A stretch of 64,000 nt of DNA from Patescibacteria group bacterium. GTDB lineage: Bacteria > Patescibacteriota > Minisyncoccia > Phycocordibacterales > CAIZLB01. The stretch lies in NCBI GenBank assembly GCA_040384865.1, contig JAZKIM010000006.1, positions 988 to 64,987 of the forward strand, read 5' to 3'. Position numbers and translations under genes: made by a program. The notes beneath the pieces are model-generated. The model was not told the DNA's origin and did not search any database. It worked only from the letters and a program-made list of their open reading frames with translations. This document shows, piece by piece, positions 3,137 to 55,369 of this stretch. How positions within the stretch are numbered: the stretch's first letter is position 1; each line of letters opens with the position of its first letter.

Positions 3137-3139
3137 ATA

Positions 3140-9525: not shown

Positions 9526-9600
9526 TTGCGAACCCGTAATGATTCTGGATAGAACATTTCTGTTCCGCCAGCACCATTACGGGTTCGCAATTTTCTATCC
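9526..9600. promoter_or_regulatory. Perfect 16-bp inverted repeat (ttgcgaacccgtaatg / cattacgggttcgcaa) enclosing a nested 5-bp hairpin (gaaca-tttc-tgttc)
   Basis: Read directly; sits in the 545-bp intergenic region between the regulator and the surface-protein gene. Confidence 0.5.
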
Positions 9601-10770: not shown

Positions 10771-10932
10771 AGTGCTTGGCTTTAATCGAGATTAAGTAAA
10801 ATGACTTATAAAAAGTTTATGCAAACTTTGTCTGAAATAGATGTCCTTCAAAATTCCAAAAGGTCAGAGGTGGTTTCAATGCAATTATATATAAGACAAT
10901 ATTAAAAGCAACTTCTTTTTCTCAAGGAGGGC

Positions 10933-13245
10933 GTGATAAAATATTCCCATATGGCAAAGAAAGACCGAAAGAAATCATCAGAGACAACTACCACTAACCG
11001 AATTGTTTTTAAAGAACTACAGGACAGCACCATGCAAAGCGTATTCGGCATCCTCTTTTTAGTGGCTGCTGTCTTTTTCCTTTTAGCTTCTTTTCACAAA
11101 GGTGGAATTGTAGGGAATACTGTATATGAGTGGCTCAACACCTTACTAGGACTTGGCTATTACCTCCTCCCTGTTCTCCTATTCATGCTCTCAGTTTCTT
11201 TCTTTAGTGAAAAAGAGCGGCGCTTCCCTCTCTCAAAGACAATTGGATCCATAATGTTCTTTTTGTCCGGACTAGGAATATTCAGTCTCGTAAAGGTAGA
11301 CAGCGGCGGGGTTATTGGGAACCTCATTTCCAATCCCCTCGTTAAACTTTTTGAAATTACCAATAGCTATATTCTTCTTCTAGCCCTTCTCATCATCTCA
11401 ATATTAGTTATTTTCGATTCCGCCCTCAAGCTTCATCATGTCCTTTTCTGGAGAATGTTTAAAAAGGACATGGTTGAAGGAGACGCAGACATAGATGATG
11501 ATGTCCCAGAGATAATAGCTCCTGTCAGCCTTAAAAAGACAGAACCTCTAGAAGCTGAGGCTGAAGCACAAGGTATGATGGCTGCTATCAAGCGAAAACT
11601 TGCTGGAGAAGATAAAGGACAAAAGGACACAGAAGATCCTTTGCCTGTTCCAGCGGACGATATGATAAAGGTTTCAAAAAAAAGCATGCTGCTCGGGAAG
11701 AGCTTTGTCCCTCCACCTCTTTCGTTACTTGAAAACGACAAAGGCAAGCCTGGCGTCGGTGACATAAAAGCAAATGCAAACATCATCAAGCGAACCCTTC
11801 AAAACTTCGGCATCGATGTCGAAATGGATGAAATCTCAATCGGACCCTCAGTCACTCGATATGCATTAAAGCCAGCAGAAGGCGTCAAACTTTCTCGAAT
11901 TCTTGGACTTCAGAACAACCTTGCTCTTGCTCTTGCCGCCCACCCAATACGTATCGAGGCGCCAATTCCTGGTAAATCGCTTGTCGGTATTGAAATTCCC
12001 AACAGTGTTAAAACAACAGTTGGTCTTGGAACACTCCTGGCCCATGAAGACTTCCAGAAAAATGAAAAGCCACTGATGGTTGCTCTCGGTAAAGGAATCT
12101 CTGGCAAATCCTATTTTGAAAACCTCGCCAAGATGCCTCACATGCTTGTCGCTGGTGCCACAGGGTCTGGTAAGTCAGTTACAATCCACGCAATCATCAC
12201 CTCTCTCTTGTACAGAAATTCTCCTGATAATCTTCGCTTTATCATGGTAGATCCAAAGCGAGTAGAGCTTACCTTGTACGACAAGATTCCCCATCTCCTT
12301 ACACCTGTCATAAAGGATGCGAAGAAAGCTATTCTTTCACTCAAGTGGGCAGCAAAGGAAATGGATCGACGCTATGACATCCTTGAGAAAAATTCCGTAA
12401 GAGACATAGACTCTTACCATAAGACTATTCTTATGCCTGCTCTCGAAAAAGTGAAAGGACAAAAGGATAGCGGAGAAGAAGTCGAACTTCCGGACACCAT
12501 GCCATACATTGTCATCGTCATAGATGAATTGGCGGATATTATGCAGACATACCCTCGAGAACTTGAATCAGCTATTGTTCGCCTCGCACAAATGAGCCGA
12601 GCTGTAGGTATTCACCTCATCCTCTCGACACAACGTCCATCGGTTAACGTTATCACAGGTCTTATCAAAGCGAACGTACCGGCTCGTATCGCACTCCAAG
12701 TAGCATCACAGATTGACTCTCGAACTATTCTTGATACCCGAGGTGCTGAAGAGCTGCTTGGTGCTGGTGATATGCTTTTCTTCTCTGGCCAAATGTCTGC
12801 GCCTGTCCGAATCCAATCTGCCTTCATTACTGAAGGCGAAATAAAGAAAGTGGTTAAGTATCTAGTCGACAATTCTGACTCTCTCCCCCAAGAAATCGTT
12901 ATCACCGGAGAATCTGTCACCAACGGTAGCAGTGGCGTGAATGATCCTGTTTTCAACTCATCATTCGACGACATGGGCGATCCCGCCGAAGACGATGATC
13001 TTTATGTAGAGGCAAAAGATATTGTTATCAAAGCCGGCAAAGCCTCTACTTCATACATCCAACGAAAACTTCGAGTCGGCTATGCTAGAGCAGCACGCCT
13101 CATGGATATTCTTGAGGAGCGAGGAGTTATCGGACCATCTGACGGATCAAAGCCACGTGAAGTCATGGCAGAATACTTAGGAACAGCAACAGGGACGAAT
13201 AGTGGGGGAATAGAGATGCCAGATGATACCGCAGAAAAGTTTTAG
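10933..13245 (+). CDS. ftsK: DNA translocase FtsK/SpoIIIE
   Basis: 770 aa; N-terminal TM segments; Walker A GATGSGKS; C-terminal gamma wHTH (YIQRKLRVGYARAARLMD). Confidence 0.9.
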   Translation: MIKYSHMAKKDRKKSSETTTTNRIVFKELQDSTMQSVFGILFLVAAVFFLLASFHKGGIVGNTVYEWLNTLLGLGYYLLPVLLFMLSVSFFSEKERRFPLSKTIGSIMFFLSGLGIFSLVKVDSGGVIGNLISNPLVKLFEITNSYILLLALLIISILVIFDSALKLHHVLFWRMFKKDMVEGDADIDDDVPEIIAPVSLKKTEPLEAEAEAQGMMAAIKRKLAGEDKGQKDTEDPLPVPADDMIKVSKKSMLLGKSFVPPPLSLLENDKGKPGVGDIKANANIIKRTLQNFGIDVEMDEISIGPSVTRYALKPAEGVKLSRILGLQNNLALALAAHPIRIEAPIPGKSLVGIEIPNSVKTTVGLGTLLAHEDFQKNEKPLMVALGKGISGKSYFENLAKMPHMLVAGATGSGKSVTIHAIITSLLYRNSPDNLRFIMVDPKRVELTLYDKIPHLLTPVIKDAKKAILSLKWAAKEMDRRYDILEKNSVRDIDSYHKTILMPALEKVKGQKDSGEEVELPDTMPYIVIVIDELADIMQTYPRELESAIVRLAQMSRAVGIHLILSTQRPSVNVITGLIKANVPARIALQVASQIDSRTILDTRGAEELLGAGDMLFFSGQMSAPVRIQSAFITEGEIKKVVKYLVDNSDSLPQEIVITGESVTNGSSGVNDPVFNSSFDDMGDPAEDDDLYVEAKDIVIKAGKASTSYIQRKLRVGYARAARLMDILEERGVIGPSDGSKPREVMAEYLGTATGTNSGGIEMPDDTAEKF

Positions 13246-20247: not shown

Positions 20248-21516
20248 TCAAAAAGTCAGCAGTTTTTTAAGCTTTTTATCATTTTTATGAGGACCGACAA
20301 TAGCCAAATTTGCTTTTGAAGTTTGAAAAATGTCCAAAGCTGCCTGTCGCATCTGATTGACGCTAACCCCTTCTATACGTTTAGTAGACTCTTCGATAGA
20401 GCGGATCTTGCCGTGATAAAGTTCTTGAAAGGCGCACCGGTCTGCCACGGCATTTGAGGTCTCAAGACCAAGCACGAGTCCTGAAAGACGCATATTTTTA
20501 CACCGTTGAAATTCCTCCTTGCCTGCTAATTCTTCTTTTATAAGCCTCAATTCAGTGACAATACCGTGAACCGCTTCTTCAAGACGATCATTTGCCACTC
20601 CGGCATATACCGAGAAAGTACCACTTTCCATTCCCGCCTGAAAACTACTACCAATGTAATAACAAATACCAAGCTCTTCTCTCATCTTTTTAAACAAACG
20701 TGAACTTGAACTTTCACCGAGAATAGTCGATAGTGCTGAAACGGCAGACTCCCTCTTATCAAACATGGTCGGCGCATGGAATGACAGCACAAAATGAGTC
20801 TGGTCAGTTTGCTTGTAATGGATTTTTACCGACGCATCCTTTTGCTTAATGACAGTCGGCTGCAATGTAGGTCTCTTTGTTTTCTTTATTTGAGAAAACT
20901 GTTTTTTGATATGTTTTTCAACAGTGGCACGATTGAAGGCTCCTGCAATGACGACAAGAGTATTTTCCACAGTGTAGTGCGTATTTCTATATCGAATGAG
21001 ATCCTCTCGCGTAAATGAGTTCACAGTTTTTTTGGTACCAATAATCTCCCGCCCTGCTGCCTGATCACCATACATCAATTCATCAATCACCTGCCCTACT
21101 TTTGCAGACGGATTGTCTTCATACATATTGATTTCTTGAATAACTACACCCTTCTCTTTTTCCATCTCAGATTCGGGAAAAATCGGATTTAGATATAGGT
21201 CTGAAATAATATCAACGAGTTCAACAGCATTCTTCTTGTGACCCTTCGCCCAGTAACCTGTCGAATACGCACCTGTAAATGCGTTATGGCGCGCACCAAG
21301 CATATCGAGCTCTTCTACAATATGCATTGATGACGGTCGCGTGGTCGTCCCTTTGAAGCACATGTGTTCAAGAAAATGAGCCAAACCATTCTCTTCCTTC
21401 TTTTCGTACATAAGGCCTGTGCCGACAAGCACCATTACGGAGACAGCTTGAGTGTTTCGCATTGGAGCTAAAATATATCGAAAACCGTTCTTAAGCTTAT
21501 GTTTAGTGAATTTCAT
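20248..21516 (-). CDS. M16 family zinc peptidase (insulinase-like)
   Basis: 422 aa; HFLEHMCFKGT inverted HxxEH zinc motif. Confidence 0.85.
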   Translation of the reverse strand: MKFTKHKLKNGFRYILAPMRNTQAVSVMVLVGTGLMYEKKEENGLAHFLEHMCFKGTTTRPSSMHIVEELDMLGARHNAFTGAYSTGYWAKGHKKNAVELVDIISDLYLNPIFPESEMEKEKGVVIQEINMYEDNPSAKVGQVIDELMYGDQAAGREIIGTKKTVNSFTREDLIRYRNTHYTVENTLVVIAGAFNRATVEKHIKKQFSQIKKTKRPTLQPTVIKQKDASVKIHYKQTDQTHFVLSFHAPTMFDKRESAVSALSTILGESSSSRLFKKMREELGICYYIGSSFQAGMESGTFSVYAGVANDRLEEAVHGIVTELRLIKEELAGKEEFQRCKNMRLSGLVLGLETSNAVADRCAFQELYHGKIRSIEESTKRIEGVSVNQMRQAALDIFQTSKANLAIVGPHKNDKKLKKLLTF

Positions 21517-21574
21517 ACGTCATATGAGTGTACTCAAAATCAGAAGTAAATGAAAGCGTCATACACAAAATACA

Positions 21575-21610
21575 AATGCCCACCGCCTCGAGAGAGACGG
21601 TGGGCATTGC
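21575..21610 (-). terminator. Hairpin gcccaccg...cggtgggc downstream of the GC-rich small gene
   Basis: 8-bp GC stem read directly. Confidence 0.4.
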
Positions 21611-21618
21611 AAAGAGCT

Positions 21619-22035
21619 CTAGGTCCGCAGAGGTTCAGGACGGTTGAAGTTGACCTTCAGCTCCACTCCACCCGGGATATGAAAGATGGCGAAATCCTGG
21701 GCACAAGGAGCGGGGCTGGTCACGACCGGAATCGCACCGTTTTGAACCAAGTATTTGATCACTTCTTCGCGGTCAGCCCACTTTTTCGGGGTCGTCTGCA
21801 AAACCAGCAGGACACTGGCATTTTTTGCCCCGATGCCGAATTTGAAGAAGGTAACCTGTTGTCGCTCCGAAGGTTGCGCACCGTAAAGAATGACTGTTTT
21901 CCGCACAACAGGATCGTCTTCGGCATTCTGCAAGCCGGGAACAAATCCAAGGTGCGAACAGCAAAACGCCGAAGCCACCGCAGGGTCGATCGTTGGAATC
22001 TGAATTTCCAGCGGACCGAAGGAAGGTTTACTCAT
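21619..22035 (-). CDS. Hypothetical protein in a GC-rich patch (small alpha/beta protein; DsrE-like fold is a weak guess)
   Basis: 138 aa; local GC clearly above the surrounding 40%; several overlapping spurious ORFs on both strands, as is typical of GC-rich coding. Confidence 0.35.
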   Translation of the reverse strand: MSKPSFGPLEIQIPTIDPAVASAFCCSHLGFVPGLQNAEDDPVVRKTVILYGAQPSERQQVTFFKFGIGAKNASVLLVLQTTPKKWADREEVIKYLVQNGAIPVVTSPAPCAQDFAIFHIPGGVELKVNFNRPEPLRT

Positions 22036-22179
22036 TGTGTATCACCGCAAAGAACCTTCACCCCCGTCGAAGGGTGTTGGCCCTCGATTGTTTTGGTTTT
22101 GGTGGATCGCAATCTTTAGTTTAGCCATAGTGGCCTTACTTAAAGTGACGTGCGAAAACTGGCGTTATAATGCCACGAG

Positions 22180-23592
22180 TTAAATATTCTGTCCAATCTT
22201 TTCCGCAAGGTCTGCAATAGCCACTCTCTCCTGCTTACCGGTGTCTCTATCACGCAAAGTCACGGCTCCATCTTTTTCAAGAGTATCAAAATCAATAGTC
22301 ACACAGTAAGGAGTACCGATTTCATCCTGTCGTCGATATCGCTTACCAATATTTCCATTATCATCAAAAGCAACACGACCGAACTTTTTCTTTAGATCGG
22401 TAAAAACATCTCGAGCCTTCTCTATGAGTGCAGGCTTGTTCTTCAATAACGGAAATACAGCAACAAGCACTGGCGCAACCTTCGGAGAGAACCTTAGAAA
22501 AGTTCGCACCTCCCCCTTTTCTCCATCTTCAGCAACAGCAGAAAGGTCGTCTTCGTTATATGCATCTGAAATAATAGCAAGGAGTGTTCGTCCAACTCCA
22601 AATGTCGGCTCAATGCAGTGCGGAACAAATCGTTGCTTTGTCTCTTCGTCGAAATAGGATAAATCAACCTTACTAGCCTCAGTATGATTCTTCAAATCAA
22701 AGTCTGTTCTGTAAGCCAAACCCAACAATTCTTTTTGACCCATTGGAAAATCAAATTCAGTATCAACGCTGTGTTTTGAATAATGTGCTCTGTCGGCATC
22801 AGCAATATCAACTTGGTGAATCTTTTCCTTCGACAATCCGAGGTCGTCAACAAGAAAAGAAACCTGTTCCTTTTGGAAAGCATCGAAAATATCTTTCCAT
22901 GCATCTGGTTTTACAAAATACTCAATTTCCATCTGTTCAAGCTCACGAACACGGAAGACGAAATCGCGTGGAGCAATTTCGTTTCGGAACGCCTTACCAA
23001 TCTGCGCCATACCAAATGGCAACTTTGGATGAAACGAGTCTACAATGTTCTTAAAGTTAACAAACATGCCTTGAGCTGTTTCCGGCCGTAAGTACGAAGT
23101 AGACGATTCATCCTCGGCGGCACCTACGTGCGTCTTAAACATCATATTGAACTGTCGCACATCTCCAAGCGCGTTTCCTTCTGGACTTTTGATCCCCTTC
23201 TCCTTTATCAAAACATCCATCTGAATGAGCGTCATTCCCTTAGGATCCACGCCTGCGTCTTCAAGTAAATGGTCCGCTCGGTAACGTTTCTTTGTTTTTA
23301 CGTCTTCAACCAAAGGATCAGCAAATCCGTCTACATGGCCAGATGCTTTCCATACATTTTGATTCATTAAAATAGCCGCGTCCATGCCGTACATATCTTC
23401 ACGATCCGTCACGAATCGTTTCCACCACAAATTCTCTATATTCTTCTTAAGTGCCACTCCGAGCGGGCCGTAATCCCAAGTACCAGCAAGTCCACCATAT
23501 ATTTCAGACCCCTGATAGATGAAACCGCGTCGCTTGCAGAGCGAGATGATCTTCTCCATTTGAGACATGTTTGAGGTATTTTCTGTTGACAT
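22180..23592 (-). CDS. glyQS: Glycyl-tRNA synthetase (alpha2 dimeric type)
   Basis: 470 aa; class II motifs; anticodon-binding C-terminus. Confidence 0.9.
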   Translation of the reverse strand: MSTENTSNMSQMEKIISLCKRRGFIYQGSEIYGGLAGTWDYGPLGVALKKNIENLWWKRFVTDREDMYGMDAAILMNQNVWKASGHVDGFADPLVEDVKTKKRYRADHLLEDAGVDPKGMTLIQMDVLIKEKGIKSPEGNALGDVRQFNMMFKTHVGAAEDESSTSYLRPETAQGMFVNFKNIVDSFHPKLPFGMAQIGKAFRNEIAPRDFVFRVRELEQMEIEYFVKPDAWKDIFDAFQKEQVSFLVDDLGLSKEKIHQVDIADADRAHYSKHSVDTEFDFPMGQKELLGLAYRTDFDLKNHTEASKVDLSYFDEETKQRFVPHCIEPTFGVGRTLLAIISDAYNEDDLSAVAEDGEKGEVRTFLRFSPKVAPVLVAVFPLLKNKPALIEKARDVFTDLKKKFGRVAFDDNGNIGKRYRRQDEIGTPYCVTIDFDTLEKDGAVTLRDRDTGKQERVAIADLAEKIGQNI

Positions 23593-26244: not shown

Positions 26245-28085
26245 TTACCCTTTCTTGACTATATTAAACCTGAGCTTCATTCCATCAATGTCAATTTCTT
26301 GAGCCCCTTCTCCTACTTTTCCATACTCAAAGACAGCAGCCTGTACAGCATAAGCAATCATGTCTCGATAGTTTTCAATTGTTTCCTTACCTACATCATC
26401 AGTTTCAATAGTAAGCACTATATAATCAGACGGAGAAAGTTCCTCTTTCTTTCGTGTCTCTTGTATGGCGCGCATAAATTCACGGACTTGACCCTCAGCC
26501 TTAAGTTCAAGTGTAAGCTCTGTATCAATTTGGACAAGACTTCCCTTCTCAACCTTTTTAACATTCAATTCGTCAGCAATAATTTCAGCTAATTCAACAG
26601 AAAGCGTTGTTGAATCCGCATATGTAAATGTTGCAAGTGGCTGACGAACTTTGATTCCCGCCTTCGAACGAAGCATTAATCCAGTTTCAACAAGCTTGCG
26701 AGCTGAAACCATGGACTCAATGAGAGTTGAATCAATTTCACCCGGTACTGGCCAGTTTTCAAGATGGACGCTTTCAACACCATCCACGCCTTTTACTTTC
26801 TGATACAAATCCTCCGCAATAAACGGCACGAATGGGGCCATCACCTTCGCAAGGGTAACCAATATGTATCGTGTTGTTTCAAGAGCTGCCTGTTTGTCTA
26901 CTTCATCTTCCGCCTTGAATCGGTCTCTAGACCGTCGAAGATACCATGTCGAAAGGTCATCGATAAAATCAGCGATTGGCCGTGAAGCGCGGTCTAGCTG
27001 ATTTGTATCAAGAGAAGTGGTGACTTCCAATATCAAAATGTTAAGTCGAGAAACCATCCATCTGTCTAACACGTGCTTACTCCCCGGCAATACTACCGAA
27101 GACTCCTCTTGAGGCGCATAGGTATTGTAAAATGTAAAGACATTCTCTAGTCGGTTGAAAAGCTTTTTATTTACCTCATCAAGAGCCTTCTCGGTGAAAG
27201 CCACCTCTTCACCACGAACAGCAGGAGAAGAGACAAGGAAATATCGAAGTGCATCAGCCCCATATTTTTCTACTGTAGGCATGAGATCGGGATAGTTCTG
27301 TAAACTCTTAGACATCTTCCGACCATCCTCACCAAGGATGAGACCGTTGACGATGACACTTTTAAATGCAGAACGATCAAAAATAGATTTTGAGAGATTG
27401 AGAAGTGAATAAAACCAACCTCGAGTTTGATCCAGACCTTCAGCTATAAAATCTGCCGGAAAAAGTTTACTATTTGTGGCAAGCATCTCCTCTTTGTTTT
27501 CAAAAGGATAATGATTCTGAGCAAAAGACATAGAACCCGAGTCATACCAAACATCAAATACTTCAGGGATACGGCGCATCGTTTCGTCAATATCATTTTT
27601 CCATGTCACTTCATCGATATATGGACGGTGAAGATCGAGTTCAAAACTTTCATTATGCGGAAGGGGCACAAATTTACATTCATGAACAGAACCTGTCGGA
27701 TCAGAAATATCAGTCCAGCCATGACGAACAAGGTCGCGTAAAGTCACACCATTTGCAATATTTATAGCTAAACGAAGTGGCAATCCATGCGTAACAATGA
27801 GAATGCGTGAGTCCACATGTTTTGCATCGATATCATAGAAAAATTCCCCTACGCGCCTTTTAACATCTTCAACAGATTCACCATCCGGCACCTTCTTGTA
27901 AAGATGTTCACTAATATCCTTAAAATATTCCGTGCGCTGACTCCAACTTCCCCCATCAAAATCTCCCGCATATATTTCCCGAATACGTTTGTCATACACA
28001 ATCTTCGTCTTGTCATAGCCAATAACCTCTGCAACAATTTCAGCGGTTTCTTTAGTTCGAAGAAAATCAGAAGTATAGATGACAA
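26245..28085 (-). CDS. ileS: Isoleucyl-tRNA synthetase, C-terminal part (remnant of histidine-phosphatase-like insert, then WYDSGS, KMSKS and anticodon-binding domain); reading frame is -1 relative to the N-terminal part
   Basis: IYTSDFLRTKETAEI...LIVTHGLPLR (PGM-family motifs) followed by DLHRPYIDEV, VWYDSGS, GRKMSKS; frame open upstream to 28110. Confidence 0.8.
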
Positions 28086-29633
28086 CTGACCGTGGCGCAT
28101 AACGAAAAATTCATTTCCTCGCCCCTCCTTTCGGATCTTTTCCTTTAATTCTTCAACTGAACTGATAAACTCAGTTTTTCCAGATGTTTCCCCCCTCCAC
28201 ACAGGAAGCGGTGATCCCCAATATCGGGATCTAGAAACTGCCCAATCGCGAGCCCCTTCAAGCCATTTACCAAAACGTCCTTCACCAATTTCTTTTGGCG
28301 TCCATGCAATTTTATTATTTTCTTCAACCAACCTATCTTTAAATTCGCTAACCCTTACAAACCATGACGAGGTGGCATAATTAAGAAGCGGCGTATTACA
28401 TCTCCAACAGTGCGGATACGAGTGCGTATACTTTTCTTTTTTAAACAAAGGAGACGGGACTTTCCTGCCAAGATATTTTATCACCTCCACATCCCCCTTC
28501 TGGTGATCATCAATTGGCTTTGCGGCCTGGCCAGCAAAGTCAGTTACAGTGGAAACAAAGAGGCCATCTGGACCAATGTGGTGAATAACAGGAAGACTTT
28601 CTTTTCGAGCAAGCTTCATATCATCTTCGCCGAAGGCAGGAGCAATATGAACAATACCTGTTCCGTCTTCTGCTGTTACAAAATCAGCTGCATAAATTTT
28701 CCAGGCATTAATACGACGCGCTTCAGCATCACCGAGAAGCGTGCCTGGAGTAACATAATATGGAAACACTGAAATGTATGATTTCCCTACAAGAGCCACA
28801 CCCTTCACCTCTTCAAGGATTTCATACCCAGCAGGTACACCTTCTTGTCCAGCAGCACCTACTCCCGCAAAAACTTTTGGTAATAAATTCTTTGCCGCCC
28901 AATATTTAATACCTTCAAATTCCACCCTTGCGTAATCCAAATCAGGATTAACCGCGAGGGCAACATTACCAGGCAATGTCCACGGTGTGGTTGTCCAAGC
29001 TAATACATAGGTTCCAGGTTCATCTATTAATTCAAATTTAACGAAAGCGGAGATATCAGTGATATCTTTATATCCCTGTGCCACTTCAAAGTTTGAAATG
29101 GAAGTCCCACATCGAGGACAATATGGCATGACCTTGTAGTCTTCATATACCAAACCTTTTTTATTGAGCTCGGCAAATGACCACATGACAGATTCCATGT
29201 ATGAAGCATCCATGGTGCGGTAATCATCATCCATATCAACCCATCGGCCAAGACGCGGAATAATTCTTTTCCACTCGTCGGCATATCTAAGAACGCTCTC
29301 CCGAGCTGCACGATTGAATTTCTCCACACCTACCTCTTCGATCTCTTTTTTGTTTTTAAGACCCATTTCCTTTTCGATCAAGTTTTCAATCGGCAATCCA
29401 TGGCAATCCCATCCCCATCGGCGAGGAACATGGAATCCCTGCATAGTTTTATATCGAGGAATGACATCTTTTATAGTAGTCGGCAATACATGTCCGTAAT
29501 GAGGTAAACCTGTTGCATAAGGTGGACCATCGTAGAATACAAAATTACCCTTCGGTGAAGGTTTATTCAAACTTTTCTGAAAAATATCATTTTCTTTCCA
29601 GAAAGCAAGGATTCGGTTTTCTCGTTCGTGCAT
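28086..29633 (-). CDS. ileS: Isoleucyl-tRNA synthetase, N-terminal part (HIGH region, CP1 editing domain, start of inserted RHG phosphatase motif); only junk translation beyond about 28086
   Basis: PPYATGLPHYGH, GWDCHGLPIE, VSRSRYWGSPLPVW, then NEFFVMRHGQ; the annotated ORF continues out of frame to 27849. Confidence 0.8.
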
Positions 29634-29753: not shown

Positions 29754-30086
29754 TCAGACGAGCAGATTGGTGGCATCGTATCGACGATCTACCGGCTGAC
29801 GAGCCCAAATAGGGCTGCCGTTTGGAACGGGCACCTGAACCGGCTCCGGAAAAATGAGCAGCCAGAGGCCTCCAACTTCATCAGACTGGTCGGGCGTGGC
29901 GACAGACTCGGGCACGTAGATATCCTGCTCCGGCGGCAGCTCTTCATCGAGTGGGTTGCTCAACTGGACATTGATTCCAGGCTTCATTTCCGCCCAGGGA
30001 CTCTGATCGAAATCACTCTTCGCCTGAGCCAAGATCGAAAGTGCCGCAAGGGCCAACGTTGCAGACAAAACTTTTTTGAGTTTCAT
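29754..30086 (-). CDS. Small secreted acidic protein in a GC-rich patch
   Basis: Signal peptide MKLKKVLSATLALAALSILAQA; Pro/Glu/Asp-rich; GC visibly above 50%. Confidence 0.35.
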   Translation of the reverse strand: MKLKKVLSATLALAALSILAQAKSDFDQSPWAEMKPGINVQLSNPLDEELPPEQDIYVPESVATPDQSDEVGGLWLLIFPEPVQVPVPNGSPIWARQPVDRRYDATNLLV

Positions 30087-30206
30087 TAGATTCACCTTCC
30101 TCTCTGGTTGCACGCGGTCAAAATGACTGCGCTGTTTTTGTTCTTAAGAGACCTATTCAAATGCTACGCTTGTATATATAAACGGTCAATTGATATGTAT
30201 AAAAGA

Positions 30207-30275: not shown

Positions 30276-30548
30276 TTACTTCACGGTAGTGTGCCGCTGC
30301 CGAACCGTGGGCGAGGGACGAGTTTCGATACCGGGGTCTCTGTGTGGGGACTGACCCCGAGGACCTTTCCGCGTCCGCGCCGAACCGCGCCGCTTCTTAT
30401 GTTTGCGGATCAGGGGGATAAGGCCGCCGCCGAACGCGAGGTTATCAAACCGCCGCTGACTGAACTTCATCTGGACCCCGTTGGCGAGGCGGACAATGAC
30501 GCGTCGGGAACCTTGCTGAATTGGAACTTCACTTTGTTTTCGTGACAT
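30276..30548 (-). CDS. Small basic hypothetical protein (Arg/Lys-rich C-terminus) in a GC-rich patch
   Basis: 90 aa; has its own terminator; faint OB/IF1-like resemblance only. Confidence 0.35.
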   Translation of the reverse strand: MSRKQSEVPIQQGSRRVIVRLANGVQMKFSQRRFDNLAFGGGLIPLIRKHKKRRGSARTRKGPRGQSPHRDPGIETRPSPTVRQRHTTVK

Positions 30549-34984: not shown

Positions 34985-35413
34985 TTATTTTCCCGTTGAG
35001 CCAAAACCTCCGGATCCTCTTATTGTTTCATTCAACTCCTCCACTTCGATGATATCTGCATGAAGTCGCTCCTGGATAATCATTTGTGCCACCTTATGTC
35101 CTTTTTCGAAAGTATATTCTTTCTCTGAAAGATTAACTACACCGACAATTATTTCACCACGATAGCCAGCATCAATAACCCCTCCCAAGGTTTTAATTCC
35201 CTCTCTTATAGCAATACTGCTCTTGTCCCAAATCAAACCGACATAACCTTCAGGAATTGCCATCGCTATACCGGTAGGTATTTGAGAATGCTTTCCTGGA
35301 GAAACAGTGGTCGAACTTTGAGCATAAAGATCAAAAGCCGCGTCACCAAGAAGAGCATATTTTGGGACGAGGGCGTCTGATTGAAGTTTTTTTATCTTTA
35401 GCTTGAGAGACAT
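34985..35413 (-). CDS. dut: dUTP diphosphatase
   Basis: 142 aa; GVIDAGYRGEI motif. Confidence 0.9.
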   Translation of the reverse strand: MSLKLKIKKLQSDALVPKYALLGDAAFDLYAQSSTTVSPGKHSQIPTGIAMAIPEGYVGLIWDKSSIAIREGIKTLGGVIDAGYRGEIIVGVVNLSEKEYTFEKGHKVAQMIIQERLHADIIEVEELNETIRGSGGFGSTGK

Positions 35414-35422
35414 ACGTACAAA

Positions 35423-36622
35423 TTACTTTCTTAAAATACCATCGATCTTCTTAGCGATTTTCTTAAAATCATTTTCTTTCTTTCCTCTAGTAGTTTCAGC
35501 AGCTGTCCCGAGACGAATACCAGAAGGATCCATTGGAGATCTCTGTTCTCCTGGGATTGTGTTTTTGTTCACAATAATTCCTGCCTTCTCAAGCCTGTCG
35601 CTCGCCTCTTTACCTGAAATACCCTTACCGCCCATCCAGGTGTCGAGAAGTATTAAATGAGTATCAGTTCCTCCAGATATGACTCTCCATCCAAGCTTCT
35701 GTAATTCTTTTGCGAACGTTGCTGCGTTTTTAATTATCTGTTTCGCGTATGATTTGAAAGCTGGTGTCATCGCCTCTTTCAATGCCACAGCGACAGCAGC
35801 AATCTGATTCAAATGGGGACCACCTTGGAGCCCGGGAAAAACCGCCTTATCAACAAGCTCGACAAAAGAACGTTCTTTTCCCTTTTCATCAGCCTCGACC
35901 CTAAACCTATTAACAAAAATAAGCGCACTACGTGGACCTCGAAGCGTTTTATGTACAGTAGTCGTTACAATATCAGCATATTTGAATGGAGAATCATATT
36001 GTCTTCCAGCCACAAGGCCGGCAAAATGTGACATGTCCACCATCATGATAGCACCGCACACATCACAAATCTCACGAAATTTTTTGAAATCAACCATTCG
36101 AGGATATGCCGTAAACCCGCATACGATCAATTTTGGTTTTTCTTTTAATGCTATTTCTTTGACCGCGTCATAATCGATCATCTCAGTATTAGGATCAACA
36201 CCGAATGAAACTTGCTGCCAGAACTTTCCCGTGGCTGAAACTTTATGTCCGTGAGTGAGATGGCCACCATCTGACAAATTCATTCCCATAATTTTTTCTC
36301 CTTTAGGAACAAGGCCGACATATACAGCAAGATTCGCAGGTGACCCTGAGAGAGGCTGCACATTCACATGCCAATCTCTTTCTTTCAAGCCAAACGCTTT
36401 AATCGCACGTTCTTTACAAAGATTTTCTATCTTATCTACAAACTCATTACCTCCATAATATCGATGCGATGAATACCCTTCTGCATATTTATTAGTAAGT
36501 TCAGAACCAAGAGCTTCAAGCACATCTTTTGAAACATAATTCTCAGATGCGATGAGATTAATTACCTTCTTTTGACGAGCCCTTTCAAGCATTATCAGTT
36601 TTTTGATTTGAGTGTCTTTCAT
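35423..36622 (-). CDS. glyA: Serine hydroxymethyltransferase
   Basis: 399 aa; LIASENYVSKDVLEA; PLP lysine region. Confidence 0.95.
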   Translation of the reverse strand: MKDTQIKKLIMLERARQKKVINLIASENYVSKDVLEALGSELTNKYAEGYSSHRYYGGNEFVDKIENLCKERAIKAFGLKERDWHVNVQPLSGSPANLAVYVGLVPKGEKIMGMNLSDGGHLTHGHKVSATGKFWQQVSFGVDPNTEMIDYDAVKEIALKEKPKLIVCGFTAYPRMVDFKKFREICDVCGAIMMVDMSHFAGLVAGRQYDSPFKYADIVTTTVHKTLRGPRSALIFVNRFRVEADEKGKERSFVELVDKAVFPGLQGGPHLNQIAAVAVALKEAMTPAFKSYAKQIIKNAATFAKELQKLGWRVISGGTDTHLILLDTWMGGKGISGKEASDRLEKAGIIVNKNTIPGEQRSPMDPSGIRLGTAAETTRGKKENDFKKIAKKIDGILRK

Positions 36623-36725
36623 GGAAATTTGATTAACAAGCTTATTATACGCAATACCTCAAAAAGGACGAAATTATGAAAAATTGACAATTATTGCCAT
36701 ACTTATAGTATCTAATAAGAACAAT

Positions 36726-37685
36726 ATGAACCCACAAAATCCCATCATTGAATATAAACCGGTTGACGAGCGAACGCCCGACGACCAATACGAGAAGCTT
36801 ATGAAAGAGTTGCTCGCTGGACACAAAAAAGTGACCATTCATGCCTCTTTGCCGGAAAACCAGGAATCAGAGCATCAGTTTTGCCTCGAACTATCCGGGC
36901 GCACGTTATCTTACAACCTTTCAAACGGGGCTCCGGTGATGCCAATCAGAGACCTCAGTGCTTCGTTTAAAGGGGCCATTGGGGAAATCGTTGCCTTCAT
37001 TAACGGGGCCCACACGCTGGAAGACCTGAAGAAGTTCGGTTGCCCTGAAATATTTTGGGGACGCTGGGTCACCGCTGAAAAATGTGCCAACTTCGGCTTA
37101 GAAACAGGAGACCTGGGCGCTGGTTCATACGGCGCCGTTCTTACTGCCACACCGATGCCTGGCGGAAAAACATTCAATCAAATCGACGCCCTCATTCGAC
37201 AGATGAAGCGGATGCCGAATCTTCGAACTCACGTTATTACGACATGGTATCCGCCATACGATCTTTCCGACAAAGAGCAGGACTCGCCTCGAAAAGTCGT
37301 CGTGGCTCCCTGCCACGGCAACATGGTTATGTTCAATGTCTACCCCGAAACAAACGAGATGGACTTAGTACATGTTCAACGCTCAGCAGACGTACCCGTT
37401 GGACTACCCTTGAACATGATTGAGTGGACGGCCTTCGGTATGATGGTATCGTACATAACCGGAATCAAACTTCGGAACTACATCCACATGTTGCCAAACC
37501 CCCAAATCTACGATATCCAGATCCCGCAAATCCAACAGCTACTAGAGCGCGAGGTGCGGAAGCTTCCGACCATGCATTTACGGCCTCAGCGCGAGATCCT
37601 GTCGATCACCGACTTCCGCCGCGAAGATTTTGTGCTCGAAGACTACCACCCGCACGAAAAGATGATGGTTCGAGCCATCATCTAG
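36726..37685 (+). CDS. thyA: Thymidylate synthase (ThyA family) with divergent N-terminal half and GC-rich composition
   Basis: VVAPCHGNMVMFNV (catalytic Cys), QRSADVPVGLPLNMIEW (Asn of dUMP-specificity region), C-terminal FRREDFVLEDYHPHEKMMVRAII; TTGACA at 36683 fits a start at MNPQNP rather than the first ATG at 36684. Confidence 0.75.
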   Translation: MNPQNPIIEYKPVDERTPDDQYEKLMKELLAGHKKVTIHASLPENQESEHQFCLELSGRTLSYNLSNGAPVMPIRDLSASFKGAIGEIVAFINGAHTLEDLKKFGCPEIFWGRWVTAEKCANFGLETGDLGAGSYGAVLTATPMPGGKTFNQIDALIRQMKRMPNLRTHVITTWYPPYDLSDKEQDSPRKVVVAPCHGNMVMFNVYPETNEMDLVHVQRSADVPVGLPLNMIEWTAFGMMVSYITGIKLRNYIHMLPNPQIYDIQIPQIQQLLEREVRKLPTMHLRPQREILSITDFRREDFVLEDYHPHEKMMVRAII

Positions 37686-37704
37686 ACCACCGACATCCCT
37701 CTAC

Positions 37705-37745
37705 CCTGCGAAACCGGAGATTTCGCAGGGTAGTTTGTTTTTTGC
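37705..37745 (+). terminator. Rho-independent terminator after thyA (ccctgcgaaa...tttcgcaggg plus T-run)
   Basis: 10-bp stem plus tagtttgtttttt. Confidence 0.8.
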
Positions 37746-37757
37746 TATGATACCTCC

Positions 37758-38207
37758 ATGAATCAAAACCTAGTGAATCTCTCTAATGCTGGTCGCCCCG
37801 GGGATGATACTTATAAAAAAGTGATCGAAAAAATACAAAGCGACAATGCCTGCCCTTTTTGTCCAGACCAACTGGCAAAGTATCACAAGAATCCAATACT
37901 TAGAGAAGGAAAATTCTGGAAGATAACAACAAACATGTATCCTTATCCCAATACGAAGCATCACTTTATGTTTATTCTTAATAATCATAAAATCGATACC
38001 AAGGAACTATCGACTGATGAGTGGGCAGAACTCCACGAACACATAAATTGGGTCGTTGATTCAAATAATATCCCTGGAGGAACATTCTTTATGCGGTGCG
38101 GAGATACATCGCACACAGGAGCCACTGTCACACACTTACATGCCCAGTTTGTATCCCCTGACTACGAAAACCCAGACAGAAAGCCAATAATGGCTCGAGT
38201 GGGATAA
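37758..38207 (+). CDS. HIT-family (histidine triad) nucleotide hydrolase/transferase
   Basis: 149 aa; CPFCP zinc-like motif and THLHAQF histidine triad. Confidence 0.7.
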   Translation: MNQNLVNLSNAGRPGDDTYKKVIEKIQSDNACPFCPDQLAKYHKNPILREGKFWKITTNMYPYPNTKHHFMFILNNHKIDTKELSTDEWAELHEHINWVVDSNNIPGGTFFMRCGDTSHTGATVTHLHAQFVSPDYENPDRKPIMARVG

Positions 38208-39035
38208 TTATTCAGACTTCACCAAAACTATTTCTACCTCTGCAGTCTTTAGAATTGTCTCAGCGTCGAGCAATGAATATCCCTTTGAATAGAAAACTTT
38301 TTTAATTCCCGCTTCTACAATGAGTTTGGCACAATTAGGGCAAGGAAATGTCGTGACGTAAATTGAGGCTCCTTCAAGACTAGTTCCCTTCCTTGCTGCC
38401 CGCGCAATCAAATTTGCTTCTCCATGAATAGCTGTTGATAGGTCAATACGTTCGCCTGCGTCAAAACTACTTCGTGGATCGCCATACATATCCATACTCA
38501 AGTCTGATGGCATGTGCTTGTTATAGCCGGCTAATAAAACATTTTTATCCTTAACCACAACAGCCCCCACTTGTCTCCACCAATCAGAACTCTTTGAAGC
38601 TTCGTCAAATGCTTTTTCAATCACCTCTTTATCAAACTCATCTATAGAGATAATTCTGTCAGGCGGAACGATAGACTCCGTTAAGGTTATCTGCCTATTC
38701 CATCTCAAGAAAACCGGTTCAAATTTTACTTCCAACTTTGAAAAATATTTATCTTTCAATTCTCGAGTGATATCTTCATCTGGCATCACAATTTCCCCTT
38801 CTATCTTTACAATACCAACCTCTGCTACATGCAACACCTTTATTTCCTTAAATATACCCAAGGCTCCAATTGCCTTTTTCATATCATCGGCATTCGTTTG
38901 ACGAAGATCTCTTTCCAATCGCGGGAAGTCTGTGACGAAATCTGCGTCTAGCAGATAAAGAGTTCCTGGGTATTTTTTAAAGAAATCTATATATCCCTTA
39001 TGAAGAGCTGGGACGAAAGAAATGATAGCTGACAT
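38208..39035 (-). CDS. dCMP/cytidine deaminase-family protein with an N-terminal extension of about 130 aa of unknown function
   Basis: 275 aa; C-terminal HGEANLIARAAR...TFPCPNCAKLIVEAGI zinc motif (H-x-E ... PC-x-x-C). Confidence 0.7.
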   Translation of the reverse strand: MSAIISFVPALHKGYIDFFKKYPGTLYLLDADFVTDFPRLERDLRQTNADDMKKAIGALGIFKEIKVLHVAEVGIVKIEGEIVMPDEDITRELKDKYFSKLEVKFEPVFLRWNRQITLTESIVPPDRIISIDEFDKEVIEKAFDEASKSSDWWRQVGAVVVKDKNVLLAGYNKHMPSDLSMDMYGDPRSSFDAGERIDLSTAIHGEANLIARAARKGTSLEGASIYVTTFPCPNCAKLIVEAGIKKVFYSKGYSLLDAETILKTAEVEIVLVKSE

Positions 39036-39628
39036 TATGCGGCTCTAATTTTATCTAAAAAGTTTTTTGTTAATTTAGAAACTTCATTTGCCAAATCTTC
39101 CGCACCTTCAATGGTGAGATTTCGAATACGAGCAGTGGTACTTGTTGTCGCTTGTGCTGGAAGTGTAACAATTTCACCAACATAATTTTTACAATCCGCC
39201 AATCGCTTCTTGGCAAAATCGCCGGTAGTTTCTGAAACGATCAAAATATCTGGGGAAACAATTTTTACTAATTCATTTTTCTCTAATGGCTCGCGTCGCA
39301 AGGTCACAATATCTACAGATCGTAAATGAACAAGCATTTTAACGCGCTCTGATTCTGGGACGATTGGTCGGTTTGGACCCTTCCTCTTCTTCGTAAGTGA
39401 ATCGGTGTCCGCACCAACAATCAGAATATCCCCTGCATTTCTTGCCGCCTCAAGATACAGGGCATGGCCCTCATGGATAAGATCGTAGACCCCCATAGTA
39501 AGAACAATTCGATACCCCATCTTTTTCAAAGACCTAACAACATCTTTAAGCTCTTTATAATCTGGAATAAAACGACTCTCGTGGTTTGGTCTATTAGTGA
39601 GAATATCTTTGATTTGGATCTTTGCCAT
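39035..39628 (-). CDS. Cytidylyltransferase-family nucleotidyltransferase (HldC/RibL/TagD-like); stop overlaps the start of the deaminase gene
   Basis: MGVYDLIHEGHALYLEAA (HxGH) and RPIVPESERVKML; real start probably MAKIQIKD (39628); coupled to the downstream gene. Confidence 0.65.
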   Translation of the reverse strand: MAKIQIKDILTNRPNHESRFIPDYKELKDVVRSLKKMGYRIVLTMGVYDLIHEGHALYLEAARNAGDILIVGADTDSLTKKRKGPNRPIVPESERVKMLVHLRSVDIVTLRREPLEKNELVKIVSPDILIVSETTGDFAKKRLADCKNYVGEIVTLPAQATTSTTARIRNLTIEGAEDLANEVSKLTKNFLDKIRAA

Positions 39629-39728
39629 AGTAGTAGAGATAATTGTTAAATTAAGTATAATTAAGCAACTTGGCCCGGTCAACAAATACCCAAACTGCAA
39701 CATTCTTTAGTCACTCGCGCCACCTTTT

Positions 39729-40226
39729 ATGATAAAAGCCTTTATAATTGCAGCTGTTACAATGGATGGTTTTATAGCGAAAGACAACGCTCATTCTCCT
39801 ATGAATTGGACTAGCAAGGACGACAAGACAAGATTTGTCGAGATTACCAAACGTGCAGGGGTTGTGATCATGGGGGCGAATACCTTCAGAACCTTTCCTC
39901 GTCCCCTCAAGGATCGCTTAAATATTGTTTACTCACGTACCCAACAATTCGAAGGTACAGAAACAGTGACCGAAGAGCCATCGAAACTTCTAAAAAAACT
40001 TGAGGCTAGAGGCTTCACCGAAGTTGCAATTTGCGGTGGTGCTGAAATTTATACAAAATTCATAGAAGCTGGCGTGGTCAACACTATTTATTTAACCACC
40101 GAACCTGTGCTATTTGGAAAAGGTATTTCCCTTTTTAGCCGACCAGTTGATACGAAGCTAGAATTAATAAGCACATCAAAGACTGAGAGTGGAACTATCT
40201 TTTCTGAATACAAAGTAATTAAATAA
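39729..40226 (+). CDS. Dihydrofolate reductase-like protein (DHFR/RibD-C family)
   Basis: 165 aa; IIAAVTMDGFIAKDN...VIMGANTF...GGAEIY pattern parallels DHFR. Confidence 0.6.
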   Translation: MIKAFIIAAVTMDGFIAKDNAHSPMNWTSKDDKTRFVEITKRAGVVIMGANTFRTFPRPLKDRLNIVYSRTQQFEGTETVTEEPSKLLKKLEARGFTEVAICGGAEIYTKFIEAGVVNTIYLTTEPVLFGKGISLFSRPVDTKLELISTSKTESGTIFSEYKVIK

Positions 40227-40227
40227 A

Positions 40228-40262
40228 GCAAAAACCCCTTTCGGGGCTTTTTGCTTTATTTA
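40228..40262. terminator. Bidirectional terminator (aaagcaaaaacccctttcggggctttttgcttt) between the DHFR-like gene and rplK
   Basis: Perfect extended palindrome. Confidence 0.8.
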
Positions 40263-45178: not shown

Positions 45179-46084
45179 TTATGCCGCAGGAACAAGACGC
45201 ACGTGAACACTTCCCCTTTTCCCCTCCTTGATTGCCAGCGGCCGGCCATCAAGGGAAATGGGTACAATGCTGTATTTCAAGCCGCAAAAAAATTTGTCGT
45301 TACAGAGACGACCAATCGCGGCTTTGGTGGCTGTTATTCGGCGCTCCAGACCGATGTTCAGGGAATTGACCTTTCCGCTCCCCTCAACCTTCACCGGGTG
45401 TGCTTTGCAGTCCTCGTGCGGACAGATTATAAGTTCACACATACCCAGATTGGTCTTGGCGTAGCGAAGGTTCTCGCGGGCCCAGCGACGAAGCGAGCTC
45501 CATGCACGCTTCCTGGTTGTCGTCAGGTGGTAGAGACAACCAGGTATTGTTAACCACGAAGCATCCAGCAACTCAACCTCAATTTCCGTACGAACACGGG
45601 CGAGCCTCGGATCGATGCACCCGAGGACGCATCGATTAACCTTCCTACGCGGAAACTCGACAATTTCATTACCGTCCCGTGCCGTTCCTTTGGCATCCAA
45701 TTCGAGGCAGCGTACAACCGGTGTGTAATCCAATTTAGCCGAATGCCTTACCGACTTTGCCATTGCCTCGACCAACTCTCGCACCGCCTTGGTATCCTCT
45801 CCGTAGTCAATGATCACCAGCACCTCGGCTGGCCGATGTAGAGAAAACCCCATTGTTGAGATGGTCATCATCGCCTCCAACAGCTTTCTCCAGTGACGAG
45901 ACTTGAAGATCTCATTAAACGGCATCATGTGGCAAAGAGGGTCATATGCCCCCCTCACCAAAAGTTGAACGGCCGACGGGGTGAACCGAGTGCTCGGACA
46001 GATGACTAACGCCCGCGAATACTCAGCCTTGGGAGAACTAAGTGTTTCGGGTGGGTGATGAACTACAGGTGTTATTTCAAACAT
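45179..46084 (-). CDS. Hypothetical protein in a GC-rich patch; its C-terminal half has Cys/His/Cys motifs resembling the beta-carbonic-anhydrase zinc site
   Basis: 301 aa; LGCIDPR...ICPHEDCKA compared with beta-CA CxDxR...HxxC; GC visibly about 55%. Confidence 0.3.
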   Translation of the reverse strand: MFEITPVVHHPPETLSSPKAEYSRALVICPSTRFTPSAVQLLVRGAYDPLCHMMPFNEIFKSRHWRKLLEAMMTISTMGFSLHRPAEVLVIIDYGEDTKAVRELVEAMAKSVRHSAKLDYTPVVRCLELDAKGTARDGNEIVEFPRRKVNRCVLGCIDPRLARVRTEIEVELLDASWLTIPGCLYHLTTTRKRAWSSLRRWARENLRYAKTNLGMCELIICPHEDCKAHPVKVEGSGKVNSLNIGLERRITATKAAIGRLCNDKFFCGLKYSIVPISLDGRPLAIKEGKRGSVHVRLVPAA

Positions 46085-54891: not shown

Positions 54892-55263
54892 TCAGGCAGC
54901 AAGTGCCAGAACCTTCTGCGTTTCATGGCGATTGTCGAGAGACCCGACGCAGCCAAGGTCTTGCTTAGGGACCCAGCTATGTGCAGTCCCTGGCAGAACC
55001 AGCGTGAGCGCGTGTTCAGGGAGACTGATCCGCTCTCCGCATACTTCGACGTCCAGACCTTCAGATTTGTAGAAGGACGGGAAATCGTGCTCGTGAGGTT
55101 CAGTTCTCTTCCCCCGAGGAACAGACTCCATCCCGTGCCGACCAACAGCAAGGGATTCGAACAACGCAGACTCGGTGGTCAGGTCAGCGACCAAGAATGG
55201 ACCTTGGACTCGGAAACTGATTCCACCGAGTTTTTGCATAATCTCCGTTGTTTCGGAATTCAT
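54892..55263 (-). CDS. Cupin-domain protein in a GC-rich patch
   Basis: 123 aa; HEHDF...E...LPGTAHS cupin metal motifs; GC visibly about 55%. Confidence 0.5.
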   Translation of the reverse strand: MNSETTEIMQKLGGISFRVQGPFLVADLTTESALFESLAVGRHGMESVPRGKRTEPHEHDFPSFYKSEGLDVEVCGERISLPEHALTLVLPGTAHSWVPKQDLGCVGSLDNRHETQKVLALAA

Positions 55264-55369
55264 TCAATATCACCTCCTTCTAGGACTATTTGGTCCGATC
55301 TTAGTATAAAAACATGGTGTGTTATGTAAACCTGTTGACACAGCTTGACAACCATACTACCCTACAGCT

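Follow-up and report, generated by a model that had tools for sequence, protein, structure and literature searches.

Does a single GC-rich gene in an AT-richer cluster betray a foreign origin? The question is posed by thyA, a thymidylate synthase gene in a cluster of nucleotide-metabolism genes (positions 34985-40226) within a 64 kb stretch of DNA (GC 42%; hereafter the window) from a Patescibacteria group bacterium, contig JAZKIM010000006.1. The initial annotation of this DNA read the composition and the divergent N-terminus of thyA as signs of xenologous replacement, and left a HIT protein and a deaminase coupled to a nucleotidyltransferase (NTase) as unexplained additions to a thymidylate-supply cluster. 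Comparison with about 55 loci, made up of 47 (one genome per species) and 12 contigs with close homologues, a few of which repeat the same genome, leads to a different answer. The locus is a lineage-typical module for the synthesis of thymidine monophosphate (dTMP) in Paceibacteria-type Patescibacteria, conserved in its position beside rplK-nusG-secE. We assign a probability of roughly 0.6 to the full reading: that ThyA is vertically kept with a stable excess of GC at third codon positions (GC3), that genes of the module are prone to exchange, and that the HIT protein and the NTase are integral accessories. The module consists of the following features:

34985-35413, minus strand: dut, dUTP diphosphatase (dUTP to dUMP); Pfam dUTPase 8.6e-29, TIGR00576 140 bits against a cut-off of 102.55
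35423-36622, minus strand: glyA, serine hydroxymethyltransferase (supply of 5,10-methylene-tetrahydrofolate); Pfam SHMT 9.5e-163, NF000586 518 bits against a cut-off of 335
36684-36711, plus strand: candidate thyA promoter (TTGACA, 16-nt spacer, TAGTAT), by consensus match only (10/12); ATG 14 nt downstream
36726-37685, plus strand: thyA, Patescibacteria-type thymidylate synthase, 319 aa; PF00303 2e-44, GC 0.50, GC3 0.60
37701-37743, plus strand: intrinsic-terminator-like hairpin ending the thyA unit, with a 13-bp perfect stem, 7-nt loop and T-rich tail, from an inverted-repeat scan
37758-38207, plus strand: HIT-superfamily protein, 149 aa; N-terminal CPFC motif and HLHAQ motif
38208-38648, minus strand: dCMP-deaminase domain of a two-domain protein, residues about 130-275
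38649-39035, minus strand: deaminase N-domain (about 129 aa) with a predicted cytidylyltransferase-like (HUP/Rossmann-like) fold
39035-39628, minus strand: cytidylyltransferase-family NTase, 197 aa from ATG 39628; PF01467 1.9e-15, HEGH and ATTSTTARIR motifs
39729-40226, plus strand: dihydrofolate reductase (DHFR)-like protein of RibD_C/DHFR type, 165 aa; PF00186 2.8e-18 and PF01872 3.1e-17, both above cut-offs
40230-40251, strand not assigned: terminator-like hairpin where the DHFR and rplK genes converge, marking the right-hand end of the module

The compositional anomaly is real. With GC3 of 0.60, thyA has the highest value among the 57 open reading frames (ORFs) of the window (z = 4.2); the other 56 have a mean of 0.376, a standard deviation of 0.053, a median of 0.37 and a maximum of 0.578. 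The GC-rich tract (about 36750-37750) has sharp edges and coincides with the thyA unit, promoter to terminator. Window and ORF analyses of GC and GC3 thus upheld the claim that thyA is deviant, well beyond the variance of the window and outside the range of its host sequence. The composition of four-fold degenerate sites in thyA (C 0.31, G 0.25) resembles that of native genes in the GC-richer relatives L046 and L002. These features speak for an allelic replacement, in which a thyA cassette, donated by a Patescibacterium richer in GC and from the same ThyA subclade, displaced the resident copy in place, perhaps repeatedly. A plausible type of donor exists: in L060, all four genes on a short contig have GC3 of 0.70, and the encoded ThyA is 77% identical to that of the window. 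We nevertheless consider such an import rather unlikely, on grounds of protein phylogeny, divergence and the distribution of the GC excess.

The protein itself gives no hint of a distant source. The thyA product matches PF00303 with 152 bits (cut-off 24.3; profile positions 21-262 of 266) and thymidylate synthases in the PDB down to 6.5e-27, and its residues 54-310 align with Escherichia coli ThyA (27% identity, E = 2e-28; the reference sequence was entered by hand). Of its 593 homologues, the top 120 show 49-100% identity across 89-100% of the length, and every named source among these 120 is a member of the Patescibacteria, as are all 47 of the species-level genome loci matched by the family profile. 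The divergence at the N-terminus was overstated in part: the first ~50 residues and two insertions of ~10 aa do differ from the canonical enzyme, but the whole N-terminal half does not. The distinctive elements are an extension of about 25 aa, a 9-aa insert ahead of the first core strand, and insertions of about 10 aa each after W83 and after the S-A-W motif. The odd N-terminus is common to hundreds of Patescibacteria ThyA proteins and is therefore a trait of the clade, not a mark of foreignness; judged by its sequence, the window ThyA, N-terminal divergence included, is the ordinary enzyme of its clade.

A phage source can be set aside. Phage thymidylate synthases are at most 32% identical to the window ThyA. 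One contig of the IMG/VR collection, L058, is the sole viral-collection contig coding for a relative of the window ThyA type (7739-8662; 34% identity).

The closest relative of the window, L001, argues against recent import. The two are sisters in the trees of ThyA (100% bootstrap), of dcd (95%), and of argS, rplK and nusG together (100%). Nonsynonymous divergence (dN) between them is 0.12 in thyA, 0.13 in glyA and 0.16 in dcd, and synonymous divergence (dS) is saturated in every gene; the identity of codons at conserved residues is at chance level for thyA and its neighbours in all pairs tested. The identities of ThyA, GlyA and the deaminase run in parallel, and the pairings (window, L001) and (L061, L062) agree for thyA and glyA. 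No tree conflict sets the thyA of this genome apart from flanking or reference genes; conflicts appear only deeper in the trees and for other genes of the module. Nor were mobile-element marks found around thyA: there are no meaningful flanking repeats and no tRNA gene nearby, and the gene occupies a conserved syntenic slot. A recent foreign import of thyA into this genome is thus rejected as the main reading on account of the sisterhood with L001, the dN and dS values matching those of neighbouring genes, and an excess of GC3 shared with co-diverging relatives. The ThyA of the window clusters with the ThyA proteins of its own phylum, as expected of a native gene, but its GC difference exceeds the variance of the window.

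That excess is widespread. Both thyA and the HIT gene are GC-rich in L001; in L061 and L062 thyA alone is (GC3 0.66 and 0.60, as against 0.29-0.48), and in L059 and L054 the excess is intermediate. In all five, thyA co-diverges with glyA and dcd. Elsewhere the whole module departs from its surroundings, being AT-richer than the flanks in the group B clade (L002, L010, L013 and others) and GC-richer in L048-L050. A single old import would by now have lost most of its excess: in a rough two-state estimate the excess decays to about a quarter, which implies an impossible starting value. If at least five lineages had acquired the gene separately, the phylogeny of the donors would have to match that of the recipients. 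Because divergence is saturated, the window and L001 are sisters and relatives carry the same excess, the GC3 of thyA looks like a stable, gene-specific state in related lineages rather than the fading mark of an import.

Two general causes of such a state were rejected. Strand or replication direction does not account for it: the HIT and DHFR genes share the strand of thyA and are not GC-rich in the window, and GC-rich genes occupy both strands in L048-L050. Codon optimisation as in highly expressed genes is unlikely as well, with GC3 of only 0.32-0.42 in rplK, rplJ, rplL, nusG and efp. Codon-shuffle z-scores for the mRNA folding of thyA are -2.5 in the window, -2.7 in L001, -1.3 in L061 and -0.1 in L062, with -1.25 for glyA and 0.0 for dcd as controls.

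Other GC-rich stretches occur in the window. Only one ORF is as GC-rich as thyA, a 301-aa frame at 45179-46084 on the minus strand (GC 0.53, GC3 0.58) that has no Pfam match. Two short ORFs between ileS and a rhodanese gene (29754-30113 and 30276-30548, both minus strand; GC 0.55-0.60), also lacking Pfam matches, have similarly GC-rich counterparts (0.50-0.51) at the equivalent position of L001 (1046-1423 and 1617-1982). Two intergenic stretches, 21550-22119 and 54925-55329 on the plus strand (GC 0.51-0.52), contain only Arg-rich ORFs with no Pfam match and may be non-coding; a scan of 21400-22300 against Rfam at permissive thresholds found no family.

Exchange of genes does take place in the module, and in this respect the transfer proposed initially has substance, among Patescibacteria generally though probably not for this thyA. 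The ThyA tree unites T1, the subclade of the window, with the group B clade at 100%, a grouping that receives 0% from argS, rplK and nusG; these reference genes instead place L017 beside the window and L001 (98%). In L056, dcd and the NTase gene group with L017 (100%) and argS groups with L006 (100%). A sister relationship of the window and L001 receives 0% for the NTase and 4% for the HIT protein, and the extent of their GC-rich tracts differs (thyA only in the window, thyA plus HIT in L001); both facts can be counted in favour of import. So can the pair L010 and L011, two species-level metagenome-assembled genomes (MAGs) in whose module regions (about 9000-12100 and 2089-5300, respectively) thyA has a dS of 0.04 and the NTase gene a dS of 0.10, as against 0.5-1.2 for flanking genes, while the deaminase gene lying between these near-identical genes has a dN of 0.30. 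The pattern points to recent, gene-sized exchange. L061, moreover, has two genes of the thymidylate synthase family, and a published survey counts thyA and glyA as transferred genes of Patescibacteria (PMC12455944). Because gene trees conflict strongly and L010 and L011 share near-identical thyA and NTase genes, gene-sized exchange of alleles within the module appears to be frequent among Patescibacteria.

Against this background of exchange, the constancy of gene order stands out. The core order thyA(+), HIT(+), deaminase(-), NTase(-), in most cases with DHFR(+) next, is found in essentially all of the about 55 loci, which carry the labels Paceibacterota, Nomura-, Moranii- and Zambryskibacteria. 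The four-gene core stays intact in Moraniibacteria-type loci despite rearranged flanks. The median spacer between thyA and HIT measures 26 nt. Of 52 loci, 25 show a 4-nt or 1-nt overlap between the stop codon of the NTase gene and the start codon of the deaminase gene, and in most the two lie no more than 20 nt apart. In the window, the TAA stop of the NTase gene and the ATG of the deaminase gene overlap by 1 nt (TAATG), in accord with the translational coupling noted at the outset. The synteny comparison thus establishes the HIT gene and the deaminase-NTase pair as real and conserved companions of thyA.

Conserved companions need not be functional partners. The HIT protein (for example an Ap4A or phosphoramidate hydrolase) and the NTase (for example acting on a sugar phosphate, glycerol phosphate or FMN) might be unrelated housekeeping genes caught in a frozen gene order; argS, rplK, nusG and secE are syntenic too, with no functional link. 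The HIT protein matches generic Hint-type proteins and bears the name Ap4A hydrolase in some sources, and the closest solved relatives of the NTase are ECT, HldC and TagD. We regard this explanation as unlikely. It has to contend with the cohesion of the core in Moraniibacteria-type loci, with the conserved NTase/deaminase overlap, with a compositional link between thyA and HIT in L001, L024 and L059, and with gene fusions and a predicted shared fold.

The first fusion joins the reductase to the HIT protein. Single ORFs encoding DHFR-HIT proteins occur in three species (L048:4999-5928, L049:9909-10841 and L050:9897-10829), and in the two that were scanned, L048 and L049, the DHFR part is canonical (PF00186, 1e-41 to 1e-52); no paper on such a fusion was found in the literature searched. 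The HIT family has its own 30-aa N-terminus, a third triad position that alternates between His and Gln within one orthologous family, and an invariant Arg in an M-R-F-G segment ahead of the triad, where PDB alignments have a different residue. The reductase of the window is itself a hybrid, scoring 66.6 bits for PF00186 (cut-off 25), 63.5 for PF01872 (RibD_C; cut-off 24.1) and 43.6 for the type 3 DHFR equivalog (cut-off 168). Canonical FolA, 24-30% identical to the hybrid, fills the same slot in L002 (11125-11667), L048 and L049, and a DHFR role of the window reductase is supported for this reason; two unrelated types of reductase in one slot look like non-orthologous displacement within the module.

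The second fusion joins the NTase to the deaminase. In P0480 (469 aa), the NTase, the N-terminal domain of the deaminase and the deaminase domain form one chain, the sole such case among 364 representatives. Together, the DHFR-HIT and NTase-deaminase fusions would tie both accessory proteins to the thymidylate pathway. The NTase has an invariant H51-x-G53-H54 and the sequence QATTSTTARIR, and matches PF01467 with 57.7 bits (cut-off 21). It stays below every substrate-specific cut-off (HldE-II 5.9e-30, 104 against 181.5 bits; TagD 37.7 against 165.4), and a profile search of the PDB matched ECT (2e-26), HldC (3e-25) and TagD.

The deaminase domain has the expected deaminase fold, with the zinc motifs H-A-E and P-C-x-x-C. 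It falls below the cut-off of the ComEB model TIGR02571 (68.5 bits against 219.45). The complete gene (38208-39035, minus strand) encodes 275 aa and includes the extra N-terminal region of about 130 aa seen in the initial annotation, which is kept throughout the family and has the conserved residues P-x-x-H-x-x-Y, ERDxR, MPDED and FLRW. In sequence, this domain has no match in Pfam, the PDB or the neighbouring NTase, and the HxGH signature is absent. In an exhaustive search of 1.84 billion representative proteins it was found 364 times, nearly always at the N-terminus of deaminases of 270-300 aa. Structure prediction gives it a cytidylyltransferase-like fold (AF2 model of the deaminase, pLDDT 82.5), so that the deaminase would itself bear a domain of the fold class of the NTase.

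A deaminase, a RibD_C-like reductase and a RibL-like NTase could also be taken for a riboflavin/FAD unit, that is, a split RibD with an FMN adenylyltransferase. The reductase does match RibD_C as strongly as DHFR_1, and the NTase resembles the RibL/HldC/ECT subfamily. We reject this idea, which we hold to be hardly credible: the deaminase fits dCMP deaminases (ComEB 6e-19, T4 cd 2e-16) far better than RibD (1.7e-6), canonical FolA occupies the reductase slot of many relatives, even fused to HIT, the three genes are embedded with thyA, dut and glyA, and no ribA, ribB, ribH or ribE is present in any locus examined. A defence system was dismissed too, PADLOC yielding only a partial match to the deaminase domain.

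We prefer a role in dTMP synthesis, for which the family assignments suggest the following scheme. Dut and the deaminase would supply dUMP, and GlyA methylene-tetrahydrofolate from serine; the clade-specific ThyA would convert the two into dTMP and dihydrofolate, which the DHFR-type reductase would recycle to tetrahydrofolate. The NTase, co-translated with the deaminase, most likely pairs with its N-domain, a degenerate cytidylyltransferase-fold module that is probably nucleotide-binding, to form a complex, much as two such domains pair in cytidylyltransferases. This complex may sense or process (d)CTP or dCMP, feeding or gating the step from dCMP to dUMP, and the substrate of the HIT enzyme may be a nucleotide phosphoanhydride or phosphoramidate that is connected with the ThyA/DHFR step.

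A more far-reaching proposal, which we advance tentatively, as possible rather than probable, is that the HIT protein and the NTase/deaminase pair form an undescribed, Paceibacteria-type layer of pyrimidine deoxynucleotide synthesis, and that thyA keeps a GC-rich codon equilibrium of its own, of non-foreign origin. The complex would take (d)CTP through dCMP to dUMP, or gate this route by sensing cytidine nucleotides, and nucleotidyl transfer by the HIT protein would be coupled to ThyA/DHFR; selection or biased conversion could maintain the gene-specific GC equilibrium of thyA in AT-rich genomes.

The initial annotation also entertained a role in nucleotide modification. Here the ThyA-like enzyme would be a base-modifying homologue, for example a dUMP hydroxymethylase, and the cluster would make a modified pyrimidine. 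The enzymes are hard to tell apart: a dUMP hydroxymethylase of the SPO1 gp29 type is a thymidylate synthase homologue that keeps Asn177 and releases tetrahydrofolate, not dihydrofolate, and sequence alone cannot separate the two reactions. The window ThyA lies below all NCBIfam equivalog cut-offs (at best 121.7 against 327 bits for NF002497, and 101.7 against 108.35 for TIGR03284), as does its family; position 207 is Q or H, with Q in many members; and further nucleotide-handling enzymes adjoin thyA. In canonical ThyA the phosphate of dUMP is held by a clamp of four arginines (R21, R166, R126' and R127'). Throughout the family R21 is replaced by Ser or is variable and R127 is a nearly invariant Thr; the equivalents of R126 and R166 are invariant, and the family-specific R16, K35, H39 or R189 could possibly make up for the loss.

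The catalytic equipment argues the other way. When 36 members of the family are aligned to E. coli ThyA, the residues corresponding to E58, W80, Y94, R126, C146, H147, R166, S167, D169, N177 and Y209 are invariant, W83 is nearly so, and the C-terminal segment is conserved. The catalytic Cys (APCH) and the Asn177 equivalent, singled out early on as kept, are thus fixed in the family. BLASTP finds no similarity between the window ThyA and T4 dCMP hydroxymethylase (gp42; E = 24), and the phage relatives, only 26-32% identical, are all annotated as thymidylate synthase. The gene is the only one of its family in nearly all loci, and the organisms need dTMP. A need for DHFR arises only when the reaction oxidises its folate cofactor, which true thymidylate synthesis does; the constant linkage with DHFR therefore favours reductive methylation over hydroxymethylation, and the partnership with both DHFR and glyA fits an enzyme that produces dihydrofolate. 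A modifying role is accordingly very unlikely, and dTMP synthesis remains the preferred function.

A separate candidate for such chemistry lies in L061. Directly after the DHFR gene, a second member of the thymidylate synthase family (10018-10908, minus strand) encodes a protein 31% identical to E. coli ThyA that keeps R21 and the catalytic Cys; Asn177 is replaced by Asp (GLPFDFAF) and His147 by Pro. Asp at this position is typical of dCMP-specific enzymes such as T4 gp42, and the protein is a candidate dCMP (hydroxy)methylase of a Patescibacterium by its active-site residues. This substitution in a module relative can also be cited in support of modification. The same contig carries an IS481-type transposase gene (2015-2935).

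Several considerations weigh against the interpretation of the locus as a vertically kept dTMP module with integral accessories. All trees are neighbour-joining trees on simple distances, and MAGs or contigs are the source of all data; L010 and L011 stem from one co-assembly, so that one of them could be a chimera. The apparent stability of GC3 could instead result from recurrent imports, with GC-rich kin such as L060 as donors. Gene order by itself says little about function, since argS and rplK, which have no functional link, are syntenic too. The missing equivalents of R21 and R127, with scores below the cut-offs, make an altered substrate or binding mode of ThyA possible. The P0480 fusion, a single case, could be an artefact of gene calling or a frameshift, or the result of a lost stop codon.

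Further details of the locus complete the description. It is flanked by argS and purD on one side and by rplK-nusG-secE on the other, and proteins of the window find their best matches in Patescibacteria MAGs. Pfam and NCBIfam profile matches bear out the gene content and positions given initially (dut, glyA, a thyA-family gene, HIT, deaminase, NTase and a DHFR-like gene), and with them the thymidylate-supply character of the cluster. The most likely start of thyA is ATG 36726, TTG 36684 belonging to the TTGACA of the promoter-like site; that of the NTase gene is most likely ATG 39628, where its homologues begin. No riboswitch or other known RNA was found in the cluster, apart from a chance-level match at 40220. 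Elsewhere in the window, ileS (26245-29633, minus strand) is broken into two overlapping ORFs, 27849-29633 and 26245-27999, the interruption falling in an inserted histidine-phosphatase (His_Phos_1) domain. A frameshift, decay into a pseudogene or faulty assembly may account for it; L001 and L002 have a single IleS of 1175-1181 aa carrying the insert, which is itself unusual.

The module has a bearing beyond this genome. Patescibacteria are thought to live largely on salvaged nucleotides, and enzymes balancing dCTP and dTTP would therefore be central to their biology. A thymidylate module that is a fixed unit with two uncharacterised nucleotide-handling partners, both linked by fusions, offers these partners as biochemical targets. 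A strong GC anomaly in one gene can outlast saturating divergence and is thus insufficient proof of recent horizontal transfer. Finally, the exchange of alleles gene by gene under a fixed gene order bears on how recombination shapes reduced genomes.

How does the module compare with known systems? The standard cycle of Gram-positive type, ThyA and DHFR with GlyA, Dut and a dCMP deaminase (ComEB/DCTD), agrees with the module in its five enzyme families and in the chemistry they imply, and bacterial ThyA shares with the window enzyme the catalytic Cys, Asn177 and the folate-contacting Trp residues. By contrast, the window ThyA forms part of a subfamily of its own (27% identity to the E. coli enzyme, other residues at R21 and R127), the reductase combines RibD_C and DHFR features, the deaminase has an extra N-domain, and HIT and NTase are constant members. 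The phage T4 set (td, frd, cd, the gp56 dCTPase/dUTPase and gp42) differs in several ways: the window has no hydroxymethylase and its ThyA is unlike gp42; the partner in T4 is a dCTPase of dUTPase fold, whereas those in the window are a cytidylyltransferase-family protein and a HIT protein; and the T4 set is phage-borne, whereas the window locus is chromosomal and vertically conserved, with one distant relative on viral contigs.

Among deaminases, the anti-phage dCTP deaminase (NF041025; PADLOC dCTPase) and the chlorovirus dCMP/dCTP deaminase likewise combine a zinc-dependent, dCMP-class deaminase with a nucleotide-related N-terminal domain, and the deaminase domain of the window matches them in part (84 and 91 bits, the former against a cut-off of 400). 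The N-domain of the anti-phage enzyme is kinase-like, however, and that of the window is predicted to be cytidylyltransferase-like; the former enzyme belongs to a variable defence island and the latter to a housekeeping module present in all relatives. The NTase shares HxGH and (R)TxxxSTT-type motifs with ethanolamine-phosphate cytidylyltransferase (ECT) and with the GCT/CCT/HldC cytidylyltransferases. ECT unites two cytidylyltransferase domains, each serving one active site, in a single functional unit; in the window the predicted second domain is on a separate polypeptide, fused to the deaminase, has P-x-x-H-x-x-Y in place of the lost HxGH and bears no detectable resemblance in sequence to this enzyme family. 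Within the HIT superfamily (Hint, Fhit, the Ap4A phosphorylase Rv2613c and GalT), His as the third triad residue is typical of Hint-like hydrolases, and Gln of transferases or phosphorylases of the GalT and Apa types. The window protein departs from known HIT systems in being constantly linked to thyA and sometimes fused to DHFR, neither of which was found reported in the literature searched. The same literature yielded no paper on the deaminase-NTase pair and no description of the ThyA subfamily, the orphan domain, the accessory pair or the composition anomaly of thyA. Overall, the locus represents a known kind of pathway in a lineage-specific form, with a distinct ThyA subfamily, a sequence-orphan domain, two accessory proteins tied in by fusions and a stable anomaly in the composition of a single gene.

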